64,000 nucleotides of DNA, from assembly GCA_044228445.1 (NCBI GenBank), contig JBGAUV010000001.1, forward strand, positions 15,827-79,826. Direction: 5' to 3'. The notes beneath the pieces were generated by a model that was not told the origin of the DNA, ran no database searches, and was given only the letters and a program-made list of their open reading frames with translations. This stretch comes from Minisyncoccia bacterium (lineage in GTDB: Bacteria > Patescibacteriota > Minisyncoccia > Phycocordibacterales > PALSA-1337). Made by a program: the position numbers and the translations under genes. This document shows positions 28,518 to 61,460 of this stretch, one piece after another. Numbering within the stretch: the first letter of the stretch is position 1; every line of letters begins with the position of its first letter.

Positions 28518-28656
28518 TATTTATTTATTTCACCATAAAAGTGTACGCTTCACCGGCATATATATAGTATATAGACCGTGTTACTCACTTTTATGTTCTA
28601 TTAATGTACGTCTTTAAACGTGGGAATACTCTAACATATAGGTATATAAAAGAAAC

Positions 28657-28819
28657 GCGGCGGGGCCCCCGTGCCCCGCCGCTGCACCTTATTGAATCGA
28701 GCGCAATAAGATGCTCTGTCTAGGAACACAGGTATGAGCCGTTCCTGTGTCGGGTGAGGGTCTATGGACCTCACCCAATTCTTGCCTACACCACTGACTC
28801 GTGACCAATGTGTCGGCAA
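28657..28819. ncRNA. GC-rich array of 4-5 perfect hairpins; putative structured RNA, or 5' leader element of the str operon if minus-strand
   Basis: gcggcggggc-ccccgt-gccccgccgc, cttattg..caataag, acacagg..cctgtgt, gggtgagg..cctcaccc, ttgcc..ggcaa; >60% GC in ~30% GC context; the 64-aa ORF here is implausible. Confidence 0.35.
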
Positions 28820-28843
28820 ATTCAAAATCTTTTAATAATATAC

Positions 28844-55022: not shown

Positions 55023-55397
55023 CTATAATATCACATTTTCCATAAAAGACACTTTTGCTAGTCTAGTATTTGTGTTCATATAAACACAAGCAATATGGAA
55101 TTGAAACTCTATATCCAGTCCATATTTCATTTCAATCATATATGTTTGTATTACTCTTTTAAGTCTTTTTTGTTTCAATTCATGGACATTTTCTTCTGGC
55201 CTATAATTCCCTGTCCCATTTATACTCTTTACTTCGATAAAATGCAAAATACCCTTTTTACTAGCCACAATATCTATTTCTCCCCACTTTTTTGCATAAT
55301 TCCTGTCTATTATAAGAAAATTGTTCTTTATAAGATATTTACATGCAATATCTTCACCTATACGGCCTATTTCTTTGCTATTTTTATTTTTTTCCAC
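55023..55397 (-). CDS. yraN: YraN/UPF0102 family endonuclease-like protein
   Basis: GE.IA..YL...G..I..RN....GEIDIVA......HF.EVK pattern typical of UPF0102. Confidence 0.65.
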   Translation of the reverse strand: MEKNKNSKEIGRIGEDIACKYLIKNNFLIIDRNYAKKWGEIDIVASKKGILHFIEVKSINGTGNYRPEENVHELKQKRLKRVIQTYMIEMKYGLDIEFQFHIACVYMNTNTRLAKVSFMENVIL

Positions 55398-55477
55398 AAT
55401 TTTATTAACACTGTATTAGGTCATAAACAAAGGTCAGAGACACGATTATAAGCCATATTTTCTGTCTCTTATAAACA

Positions 55478-55508
55478 CTATCCACAAAGTTATCCACAGT
55501 TATACACA
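55478..55508. promoter_or_regulatory. Three tandem DnaA-box-like 9-mers in helical phase (CTATCCACA, TTATCCACA perfect, TTATACACA)
   Basis: Starts at 55478, 55490, 55500; consensus TTATCCACA; between tRNA-Gly and yraN. Confidence 0.4.
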
Positions 55509-59401: not shown

Positions 59402-60319
59402 TTACCCCTTCCTATGAAACTTTTGATGTACTTTCTTTAATTCACTATCTGTAATATGTGTATATATCTGTGTCGTTCCTATATTTGCATGTCCAAGTAA
59501 CATTTGAACCGAACGCAAATCAGCACCATTTCGCAATAAGTCTGTAGCAAAAGAGTGGCGAATAACGTGTGGAGTTACCTTTTTTGATATTCCAGCCTTA
59601 ATTGCATAAAACTTTATTATTCTTTCTACTGATCTTGGAGTTAAACGTAGTGTATTTCTTTTCTTTTTATCGGCAATTTGAACAAATAATGCATCGTCCA
59701 TGTCTTTTCTCTTTTTTAAATATTCATTTACCCATTTTTTTGCATTTTCTGATAAAAATACTACTCTGACCTTTTCTCCCTTTCCTCTTATAGAAAATTC
59801 ATCTAATTTCAAATTTATATCTCTTGGTAGGGAACATAGCTCTGAAACACGCAAACCTGTTGAAAATAACAATTCCATCATTGCTCTATCACGTAAACCT
59901 TGAATTGTATTTGTATCCGGTGCTTTTAATAAATCATTCAATTCCTCTATATTTATTAAATCTATTGATCTTTCTGCTACTTTTGCCAATTCTATTCTCT
60001 CTGGTGGTATTACTTCTATACTTCTCTTAGCTAAATACTTCAAAAAAGAGCGTAAAGCAATTAAATAATAATTCTGTGTACGTTTCTTTATTGGAGTAGG
60101 GGAGCCTCCTTTTACTTTTACTGTTTGTTGTCTATTTAACCAAAGTCTATACTCTCTAAGTACGGTATCTGTTATATCTTTTGGGTTTTTAACCTTAGTA
60201 TGCTGTAAAAATACACTTATATAGTGATCATAGTTTCTCACAGTACTCAAACTTCTTCCTTTTTCTATTTCTACATATTGAAGAAATTCTGTTTTGAGAT
60301 CTGTTATATTGTGCGACAT
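59402..60319 (-). CDS. xerC: Tyrosine site-specific recombinase XerC/XerD family (start moved to MSHNITDL)
   Basis: C-terminal R..H..R..Y catalytic box: RHSFATDLLRNGADLRSVQMLLGHANIGTTQIYTH. Confidence 0.85.
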   Translation of the reverse strand: MSHNITDLKTEFLQYVEIEKGRSLSTVRNYDHYISVFLQHTKVKNPKDITDTVLREYRLWLNRQQTVKVKGGSPTPIKKRTQNYYLIALRSFLKYLAKRSIEVIPPERIELAKVAERSIDLINIEELNDLLKAPDTNTIQGLRDRAMMELLFSTGLRVSELCSLPRDINLKLDEFSIRGKGEKVRVVFLSENAKKWVNEYLKKRKDMDDALFVQIADKKKRNTLRLTPRSVERIIKFYAIKAGISKKVTPHVIRHSFATDLLRNGADLRSVQMLLGHANIGTTQIYTHITDSELKKVHQKFHRKG

Positions 60320-60369
60320 GACTATATTGTAACAGAAATATAGTTTTCCACAGTTATACACAGAATTGT

Positions 60370-60398
60370 TTGACAAGCTTTTTCTATGGGAGTATATT
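60370..60398 (+). promoter_or_regulatory. Consensus sigma70-type promoter (TTGACA, 17-bp spacer, TATATT) driving the GC-rich noncoding unit
   Basis: TTGACA at 60370..60375, TATATT at 60393..60398. Confidence 0.45.
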
Positions 60399-60404
60399 CA
60401 TGTA

Positions 60405-60756
60405 CGAAGCAGTACATTGGAAGTAATTAAGCAGTAGTCGGTGAACCGATGTGACTGCTCTGTCACAAAACCCGCTCCACACGCGATGTGTGGAGCAAAT
60501 TGGAAAGGTCCCAACTATGAAGAGTCCGAACGCGCCCCCTGGCAACGTTACCGTTGCCACCGCCCCCCATGGATTCAATGGCCTGACGAAGGCCTCCACC
60601 CCCCTGCGGAATACGGAGTATCCCGACAACCCGGCCCGCATCGCCTCCTCCCAGAAGCTCGGAGAACCGAGCACGTACGGTTGCTCCGCCTGACCACTCT
60701 AATCCGGTCAGAACGAGCATTTGCCACTTCATCCGGTCGATGGAGTGGCATTTTTT
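60405..60756 (+). ncRNA. Putative ~350-nt GC-rich highly structured ncRNA (class unassigned; RNase P RNA / tmRNA / novel)
   Basis: No plausible ORF (four mutually overlapping G/P/R-rich ORFs); ~60% GC; perfect hairpins (gctccacac-gcgat-gtgtggagc, ggcaacg-ttac-cgttgcc, gctcgg-agaa-ccgagc, ctgacc..ggtcag); ends in terminator gccacttcatc-cggtcg-gatggagtggc plus TTTTTT. Confidence 0.45.
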
Positions 60757-60821
60757 ATATCTATTATAACCCTTAAAATAAGGGTATTTTTTATTATTTA
60801 ATACTCTATTCATAATTTTAC

Positions 60822-60850
60822 TTGACAAATATTTTATATATGCTAGGATA
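60822..60850 (+). promoter_or_regulatory. Second promoter-like element (TTGACA then 16-17 bp then TAGGAT/TATATA)
   Basis: TTGACA at 60822..60827. Confidence 0.3.
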
Positions 60851-60856
60851 TTACCA

Positions 60857-61138
60857 GATGAACCTTGTTAGTACCCTTTATCTGGGGCAGGGAACATCTA
60901 AGGATCGGCGACGTAGCCAAATCCTTCAACACATGAATCTCTCCTAATGAGTTTATTGTTAGGAGAAAACGTGGGACTGAAAGGAGTCCATGAACAAAGA
61001 CCCGCCCGTCGAGTAAGATTTCTTGCTCGGACGACACAAAAAAGAATCAAACCTCAACCCGAGAACGCCAGCTCTATTGCCTAAGCGTTCTCATAACCCG
61101 GACTCTAGCGTGTTGCAACGCTCGAGTCCGATTTTTTT
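60857..61138 (+). ncRNA. Second putative structured ncRNA (~280 nt), ends at a strong intrinsic terminator just upstream of the rpsO promoter
   Basis: No ORF; hairpins tctcctaa..ttaggaga, gagaacgc..gcgttctc, ggat..atcc; terminator ggactctagcg-tgttgcaa-cgctcgagtcc plus gaTTTTTTT at 61100..61138. Confidence 0.35.
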
Positions 61139-61193
61139 ATAAAACACATACAGTATTGCTTTATAAACACATTCATGCTATTATCTTCACACA

Positions 61194-61460
61194 ATGCTTA
61201 CAACAAAACAGAAAGAAAAAGTAATAAAGCTTGCAGCGATTCACGATAAGGACACTGGCTCTCCAGAGGTTCAGATTTCAATTTTAACAAAGAAGATCAA
61301 TGAACTAGCTCTACATTTGAAGAAACATAAGAAAGACAATCACTCAAGAAGAGGTTTGTTAGCTATGGTTTCAGACAGACAAGCACATATGAACTATTTG
61401 AAGAAGAAGAATCCAAAGAGATACTCAAGTATTGCAAAAAAGCTAGATTTGAAGAAATAA
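61194..61460 (+). CDS. rpsO: 30S ribosomal protein S15
   Basis: S15 signature ...GSPEVQI..LT.KI..L..HLK.HKKD.HSRRGLL.MV..R...L.YL...; TTGCTT-17-TATTAT promoter ends about 10 nt before ATG (near-leaderless). Confidence 0.9.
   Translation: MLTTKQKEKVIKLAAIHDKDTGSPEVQISILTKKINELALHLKKHKKDNHSRRGLLAMVSDRQAHMNYLKKKNPKRYSSIAKKLDLKK

Follow-up and report, generated by a model that had tools for sequence, protein, structure and literature searches.

A GC-rich unit between xerC and rpsO in a Minisyncoccia genome: a candidate small-protein transcript with a structured leader

Between the divergently transcribed genes xerC and rpsO of a Minisyncoccia bacterium (assembly GCA_044228445.1, contig JBGAUV010000001.1) lies a GC-rich unit of about 350 nt, here called RNA1, which raises the question of whether such an island in an AT-rich genome is a large structured non-coding RNA or a gene for a protein. 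The original prediction, made from a 64,000-nt stretch of this contig (hereafter the window), favored a structured RNA of a size fitting ribonuclease (RNase) P RNA or transfer-messenger RNA (tmRNA). RNA1 was compared among 11 distinct variants from close relatives (Paceibacteria, candidate phyla radiation), comprising subclade A (the window, L001, L009, L006, L232, L221 and L004) and subclade B (L211, L220, L213 and L212); a twelfth variant, the subclade B-like L238, was left out of the counts. The interpretation preferred here, with slightly better than even confidence and with translation predicted from sequence patterns, is that RNA1 would be a monocistronic mRNA for an orphan small protein, possibly with a second function at the RNA level. 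The encoded protein would be fast-evolving and is probably disordered.

The unit, its reading frame and its leader

By sequence criteria RNA1 is a discrete conserved transcription unit delimited by a promoter and a terminator (Table 1). The sigma-70-type promoter described in the original prediction is well supported, since its hexamers are invariant in all homologues; the spacer between them is variable. Transcription would begin near position 60404, about 6 nt past the TATATT box. The high GC content reported for the span was also borne out, at 0.54-0.63 over 60400-60700 as against 0.32 for the whole window, and the GC skew of the unit is negative (C > G). The canonical terminator is likewise real in the comparative sense that its hairpin is kept in all variants, with a stem sequence that differs between subclades. 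The terminator-like hairpin that follows it is invariant in subclade A, and an analogous hairpin is found in subclade B.

Table 1 Features of RNA1 and the adjoining RNA2 in the window.
Feature	Position	Strand	Remarks
Adjacent DnaA-box-like 9-mers TTTTCCACA and TTATACACA	60344-60362	+	Just upstream of the -35 hexamer
Sigma-70-type promoter, TTGACA-17-TATATT	60370-60398	+	11 of 12 consensus positions
5' leader, ~113 nt	60404-60516	+	Most conserved part of the unit (first ~110 nt)
Small open reading frame, 58 codons and TGA, MKSPNAPPGNVTVATAPHGFNGLTKASTPLRNTEYPDNPARIASSQKLGEPSTYGCSA	ATG 60517 to TGA 60691-60693	+	Frame, start and stop site conserved; GC content at third codon positions (GC3) 0.77
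Hairpin GCUCCGCCUGACC...GGUCAGAACGAGC overlapping the stop codon	60683-60718	+	Subclade A only
Intrinsic terminator	60722-60756	+	12-bp stem (hairpin 60722-60750), then TTTTTT
Second terminator-like hairpin ACCCTTAAAATAAGGGT, then a T run	60769-60792	+	Hairpin 60769-60785; separates the unit from RNA2
RNA2 unit	60822-61138	+	Promoter TTGACA-16-TAGGAT with TG extension, 60822-60849
RNA2 transcript (predicted), GC-rich	~60854-61138	+	Terminator hairpin 61100-61129

Overlapping open reading frames (ORFs) were originally noted on both strands of the unit and set aside as nonsense. The ORFs exist; the dismissal does not hold for one of them, a plus-strand frame that opens at ATG 60517 inside the listed ORF 60451-60693 and stays in phase across homologues. 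The same frame is open in 10 of the 11 variants, with 47-59 codons in nine and 30 in the heavily deleted L004. Identity in the body is only 44-69% between most variants and indels are many, yet the distance from the start codon to the homologous stop is a multiple of three in 10 of the 11 (174, 159, 171, 177, 159, 90, 153, 150, 141 and 147 nt), as is the distance from the start to a conserved CTGCG block in nine (87, 69, 87, 93, 66, 102, 99, 90 and 99 nt). Leader lengths, in contrast, range from 106 to 116 nt and fall into all three residue classes modulo 3. By our estimate this phasing would arise by chance about once in 100,000 cases, a value that takes distinct length classes as independent and, the sequences being related, is an upper bound on significance. 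L009 is off phase for both distances through one extra C in a C6/C7 run, on a contig with 3x coverage; L004 is in phase from start to stop and off phase at the CTGCG block, the homology of which is doubtful there.

The boundaries of the frame and its composition point in the same direction. Subclade A starts with ATG and subclade B with GTG, and the stop at the homologous site is TGA, TAA or TAG. Codon-position composition was similarly periodic in the nine variants analyzed: G1 is about 0.33 and G2 about 0.17 (G1>G3>G2), C2 is about 0.47 with C2/C3 high, A3 is 0.00-0.19, and GC content is highest at the third position. Gaps of 3 and 6 nt were over-represented in frame-blind pairwise alignments, and frame 0 gave the best BLOSUM score. 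Triplet-repeat slippage was ruled out as the source of these indels, as neither tandem nor triplet repeats were found.

The predicted peptides share the motifs M-K/N...P-P-G (in subclade A), T/S-A-P and L-R-x-x-[DE]-[YH]-P-D-[NE]-P, and have variable C-termini; subclade B has neither the PP motif nor the hairpin that overlaps the stop codon. Synonymous variation was confined to the L-R...P-D-x-P motif, where CGG, CGC and CGT alternate at the conserved Arg and CCC, CCG and CCT at the conserved Pro. Between the window and L212 there are five synonymous changes across R-N-T-E-Y-P. The small ORF also looks mosaic: that of L221 (2071-2232) resembles L001 at its N-terminus, the window in its middle (PLRNTEHPDNP) and L006 at its C-terminus (KKFPGDAGHCSA), an arrangement of sequence that suggests recombination among variants.

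Folding of the leader was consistent across variants, with z-scores of -1.4 to -4.1 relative to dinucleotide shuffles. Hairpin P1 is long (about 60404-60463), starts at most a few nucleotides from the predicted 5' end and includes AGCAGU/ACUGCU as an invariant pairing; in its inner stem, subclade A pairs CAUUGG with CCGAUG (L009 showing wobble variants) and subclade B pairs UGGUU with AACCA. Hairpin P2 (60474-60496) is formed by four unrelated stem sequences at the same position among the variants, and compensatory changes were found in both hairpins. The A-rich stretch after P2, which includes the motif GAAAGG (60503-60508), is mostly unpaired, and mean pairing probability before the start codon is 0.21-0.50. 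Sequestration of the start codon by the leader was considered and rejected, duplex energies being no better than those of shuffled controls.

The body of RNA1 behaves differently. Dense hairpins had been described along the whole span, and the window copy does fold well, with z-scores of -5.6 for the whole RNA on the plus strand (-4.7 on the minus strand) and -3.6 for the body. Body z-scores in the nine other in-frame variants were -1.5 to +1.8. Because in most homologues the body is no more stable than shuffled sequence, the dense hairpins are largely a property of the window copy and its GC content, and selection on the body for structure was ruled out, z being about 0 in most variants. The proposal of a structured RNA gene is thus upheld for the 5' 113 nt, with its conserved hairpins and compensatory changes, and not for the body, which keeps a frame and is not consistently structured.

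These features can be assembled into a tentative course of events for a small-protein mRNA. Transcription would begin at the predicted site, and the first 113 nt would fold into P1 and P2, leaving an A-rich, largely unpaired initiation region. By analogy with mRNAs stabilized by a 5' stem-loop, the hairpins may protect the 5' end and stabilize the transcript, or they may set a context for initiation independent of a Shine-Dalgarno (SD) sequence. Ribosomes would then initiate at AUG 60517 (GUG in one subclade) without a canonical SD sequence, as is apparently the rule in this genome, and would read a Pro/Ala/Thr/Ser-rich ORF whose GC-rich codons are rare in this genome. Translation would terminate at UGA 60691-60693, about 30 nt ahead of two tandem intrinsic terminators.

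Competing explanations

Several observations weigh against a translated ORF. In-phase indels preserve all six frames, and the choice of frame therefore rests on start and stop conservation and on composition. Synonymous and non-synonymous counts (44 vs 129) are near neutral overall, and the synonymous fraction is 0.18 in frame 0 compared with 0.18 and 0.13 in the other frames. The leader is conserved better than the ORF, and short hairpins within the ORF keep their pairing through compensatory substitutions that alter the peptide (GGCAACG/CGUUGCC vs GGCAG/CUGCC). GC3 is 0.77 in the ORF and 0.18 in native genes, with GCC, CCC, CCG, ACC, ACG, TCG and CGC replacing the native A- or T-ending codons; no model considered here accounts for this codon usage. 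The AlphaFold (AF2) prediction, computed from a shallow alignment, had a predicted local distance difference test (pLDDT) score of 54 and no secondary structure. Finally, of the 48 long ORFs in the window, 45 lack an SD-like sequence upstream, which makes GAAAGG unlikely to serve as a ribosome-binding site. This lack agrees with the partial loss of the anti-SD motif in Parcubacteria, where it was detected in only 48% of 16S rRNAs (PMC9297842).

The absence of homologues belongs with these points. The original prediction had named a protein match across the span as evidence that would speak against a non-coding RNA; searches of 5.8 billion and of 1.84 billion proteins gave no homologue beyond the clade. 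The profile search of the 5.8 billion proteins returned two same-clade ORFs and nothing else, and searches of the peptide against Pfam and NCBIfam gave no match. The phmmer search of 1.84 billion representatives matched P0123 and P0124, Bacteroidetes surface-repeat proteins, and these were judged spurious (17 and 5 weak matches to identical repeats).

The same observations could be gathered into a different explanation, which is rather unlikely and is nonetheless the likeliest of the rivals: that RNA1 is purely non-coding, with a functional or base-pairing 5' domain and a C-rich, weakly structured body (CCUCC and CCCCC tracts) that, single-stranded, offers a platform or sponge to G-rich RNA or to a protein. 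Near-neutral peptide evolution, the lack of protein homologues and of a predicted fold, the disuse of SD sequences in the genome together with the patchy anti-SD motif in Parcubacteria, and the compensatory maintenance of local hairpins in the body would all fit such an RNA, as would a leader that is the most conserved segment, a negative GC skew and a body unstructured in most variants. The reading frame and the 3n changes would then be by-products, and it is here that the explanation is strained. Length changes are restricted to multiples of three in the body and not in the leader, the ATG/GTG start is conserved, and so is the stop site, where the stop codons replace one another. L004 retains its stop (as UAA) at the cost of a mismatch in the stop-overlapping stem. 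Periodic codon-position composition, synonymous variation at the conserved Arg and Pro and the lack of triplet repeats also argue against it, and the complement of the invariant 5' end, searched for as a base-pairing target, had no above-chance match within the 64-kb window. Within the preferred interpretation, a small-protein mRNA may also have a second, RNA-level role (a dual-function RNA), since conservation is higher in the leader than in the ORF.

The GC-rich codon usage invites another explanation, that of a remnant of a gene fragment acquired by horizontal transfer from a high-GC donor, now expressed from a local promoter and non-functional or decaying. A GC3 of 0.77 with GCC, CCC, CCG and ACC codons in a genome of GC3 0.18, an insertion limited to a narrow clade, rapid divergence and mosaic variants would fit such an origin. 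A donor-like homologue was absent from both protein searches, however, and promoter hexamers, leader, start, stop and terminators are maintained in every variant. Nor has the GC-richness been eroded in variants that are only 44-69% identical in the ORF, and the remnant is considered improbable.

Still less probable is a translated leader acting as an attenuator, in which progress of the ribosome through a rare-codon ORF with an N-terminal PPG would control read-through into the downstream unit RNA2 and into rpsO-NYN-pnp. A frame kept without conservation of sequence suits an ORF for which the act of translation matters, a hairpin encloses the stop codon about 30 nt ahead of the terminator, and an N-terminal M-[NK]-x-x-P-P-G recurs in RNA1, RNA2 and the related L222 and L223 units described below. 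Read-through would nevertheless have to pass two tandem terminators, after which RNA2 and rpsO have separate conserved promoters; RNA2 is absent in L213 and L215 with RNA1 unchanged; the PP motif and the stop-overlapping hairpin are missing in subclade B; and 47-58 codons is long for a leader peptide.

Known RNA families were searched at several levels. Rfam 15 at gathering score yielded four tRNAs only in the whole window, and at E-values up to 10 over 60200-61300 it yielded chance-level matches only (psbT-asRNA, MicC, Gl_U1, which is Giardia U1, and anti-hemB), all far below gathering scores. No Rfam family matched the homologous loci. In the window ARAGORN found the four tRNAs and no tmRNA, and L004, L006 and L009 yielded nothing; neither ARAGORN nor Rfam detected in the unit a tRNA-like domain (acceptor stem, T arm) with a tag frame. 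As far as the models reach, RNase P, tmRNA, signal recognition particle (SRP), 6S, OLE, GOLLD, ROOL, HEARO/omega RNA and raiA are excluded. The Rfam comparison had been suggested along with the original prediction, and its outcome fits the alternative offered there, a novel RNA, on the family level only; a large structured RNA of the RNase P or tmRNA type is not supported by these searches, nor by the frame kept in the body. A candidate RNase P P4 helix (GGAAAGUCC-like and ACAGAA..CCGGCUUA-like strands) was rejected, as it showed no long-range pairing. The GGTCAGAACGAGCA / GGTCAGAACGAGCATTTGCC stretch, which is reminiscent of conserved region V (CR-V) of RNase P, sits in a local hairpin; the partner of GGUCAGAACGAGC is the nearby GCUCCGCCUGACC, in a segment that is absent altogether from subclade B. 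A highly divergent RNase P RNA, tmRNA, SRP RNA or 6S RNA, for which the size of ~350 nt, the GC-rich island in an AT-rich genome and the resemblance of GGAAAGGUCC and CAGAAC to RNase P CR-I and CR-V might be cited, deserves almost no credence given the lack of any Rfam match up to E 10 in the window or homologues, the negative ARAGORN result, the local pairing of the CAGAAC stretch and its loss from subclade B, the inconsistently structured body, and the absence of the element at the same spot in most related genomes (telling only if it is absent elsewhere too).

The locus and its other GC-rich elements

RNA1 is flanked by the CCA-adding enzyme, exoIII and xerC genes on one side and by rpsO, an NYN-domain gene and pnp on the other. 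The xerC start is ATG 60319 on the minus strand, and the unit is transcribed divergently from this tyrosine recombinase gene, as originally described. At this locus xerC is a syntenic housekeeping gene and not a sign of a mobile element, and a viral scan and BLAST against phage and plasmid records returned nothing relevant. The rpsO gene has its own promoter, TTGCTT-17-TATTAT at 61156-61184, and starts at 61194 with nearly no leader. The xerC and rpsO starts lie 6-9 nt from -10-like boxes, which suggests from sequence that both mRNAs may be leaderless.

The polynucleotide phosphorylase of the locus matches Patescibacteria of the Paceibacteria/Parcubacteria group, namely metagenome-assembled genomes of Taylor-, Nomura-, Zambryski- and Kaiserbacteria. 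The order CCA-exoIII-xerC-rpsO-NYN-pnp is kept across the 80 species representatives retrieved, in most of which the xerC-rpsO spacer is 60-158 nt. A search with nhmmer, using the RNA1 profile against these 80 GTDB loci around pnp, gave no match. Because the spacer is short (55-158 nt) in most relatives compared, RNA1 and RNA2 together are a lineage-specific insertion of 0.5-1.1 kb between xerC and rpsO. The insertion is present in contigs whose S15 protein is 98-100% identical to that of the window; in four lineages with S15 86-88% identical, the spacer is equally short and holds two divergent promoters only. In L213 and L215, RNA1 is present unchanged without RNA2 and the spacer is 526 nt. 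The L223 lineage has an RNA2-like unit only, and the L222 lineage has two analogous GC-rich units. A metagenome DNA-pattern scan with CASAACGAGCAYTTGCC, a motif confined to one subclade, returned loci at chance level against the RNA1 profile (nhmmer; two inspected), the pattern being too loose.

The units of L222 (1-905) and L223 (1674-2150), in which S15 is 86-88% identical, are GC-rich, bounded by promoter and terminator, and located upstream of rpsO. Each contains a hairpin, AAAGG and an AUG that opens a short ORF (MNKSPPSG or MNGPPG), and thus the N-terminal P-P-G recurs.

RNA2, immediately downstream of RNA1, is the better candidate of the two for a new structured RNA and is offered here as such. 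It is ~285 nt long in the window and in L001 and 410-570 nt in the other variants analyzed, with a differing 3' part. It was strongly structured in seven variants (z-scores of -4.4 to -10.4), its helices carry compensatory substitutions, and it lacks both a conserved long ORF and a match in Rfam. Within it, GAAAGG is presented in a hairpin loop and followed by AUG (GUG in subclade B), which opens a mini-ORF of 7-27 codons that starts MNK-x-P-P in most subclade A copies (MNKDPPVE in the window). In the RNAalifold consensus an invariant 5' CCUU pairs with AAGG, and a 5' CA pairs with the UG of the start codon.

A more ambitious proposal would unite the two units, and it is regarded as improbable. 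RNA1 and RNA2 would represent a class, so far undescribed, of structured RNAs that are translated in bacteria without SD initiation, in which a 5' hairpin domain, a hairpin-presented GAAAGG and AUG/GUG would recruit ribosomes to a proline-rich M-[NK]-x-x-P-P-G ORF in rare codons. Translation itself (its speed, or its dependence on elongation factor P (EF-P) or tRNA) would set the fate or activity of the RNA, and the units would be inserted, duplicated and lost beside the RNA-turnover genes rpsO-pnp.

A third GC-rich non-coding island (28640-28835, 58% GC) was observed upstream of a likely rpsL-rpsG-fusA cluster on the minus strand. It has strong hairpins (z-scores of about -5.8 on the plus strand and -5.5 on the minus strand) and no Rfam match, and could represent a leader of r-protein genes or a further unannotated RNA.

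The DnaA-box-like 9-mers upstream of the RNA1 promoter had been reported to be shared with another locus, and this is correct: a near-identical pair, TTATCCACA and TTATACACA, is located at 55490-55508, and TTTTCCACAG is conserved in all homologues of the unit. The pair upstream of the RNA1 promoter reads TTTTCCACAgTTATACACA, nearly identical to the pair at 55490-55508. The latter belongs to a cluster at 55390-55508, between a tRNA-Gly gene and a UPF0102 gene, that contains CTATCCACA, TTATCCACA and TTATACACA, with TTTTCCACA at 55390. The degenerate motif TTWTNCACA occurs 18 times in the window where 11 are expected.

Public gene calls over the RNA1 region are inconsistent between contigs, and for the window region nothing conserved is listed. 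In some contigs ORFs of 146-159 amino acids are called on the opposite strand across the leader and terminators (L001 9223-9702 and L006 4097-4537, both minus strand), and the small plus-strand ORF is called in a few, with an upstream extension (for example L211 2063-2242, plus strand). Should RNA1 prove to be a small-protein gene, a GC-rich "structured RNA" island in an AT-rich genome of the candidate phyla radiation could hide a small orphan protein gene that gene callers mostly miss or call on the wrong strand. Such a gene would have retained codon usage opposite to that of its genome, without a ready explanation, and would counsel caution in nominating non-coding RNAs from GC-rich intergenic regions alone. 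The gain and loss of RNA1 and RNA2 are traceable, as lineage-specific insertions in an otherwise very stable Paceibacteria gene order.

Comparison with known systems

The large housekeeping RNAs RNase P RNA (RF00010/RF00011) and tmRNA (RF00023) resemble RNA1 in length (~350 nt), in forming a GC-rich island and in short similarities to P4 strands, and the internal mini-ORF of RNA2 is a parallel to tmRNA. Unlike them, RNA1 matches no covariance model and has neither a tRNA-like domain nor a long-range P4, and its body can be read in a conserved AUG/GUG frame.

Some mRNAs are stabilized by a 5'-terminal stem-loop, as in the leaders of Escherichia coli ompA and Bacillus subtilis aprE. RNA1 is like these, by analogy only, in that a stable hairpin begins only a few nucleotides, at most, from its predicted 5' end and an accessible initiation region comes after it; it differs in that its leader is far more conserved than its ORF.

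Dual-function small RNAs that are also mRNAs of small proteins include SR1/SR1P of B. subtilis, RNAIII/hld of Staphylococcus aureus and SgrS/SgrT of E. coli. In common with these, RNA1 would be a short transcript (200-500 nt) that stands alone, with a promoter and an intrinsic terminator to itself, an ORF of 26-60 codons and a conserved structured non-coding part. It has no sequence or family relation to them and no pairing target found in the window, and its ORF is GC-rich in an AT-rich genome. Its host also differs, belonging to the candidate phyla radiation and making no use of SD sequences, and for RNA1 both translation and RNA function are predictions from sequence. RNA1 is best classed as a new small-ORF transcript that is restricted to its lineage and carries a structured leader.

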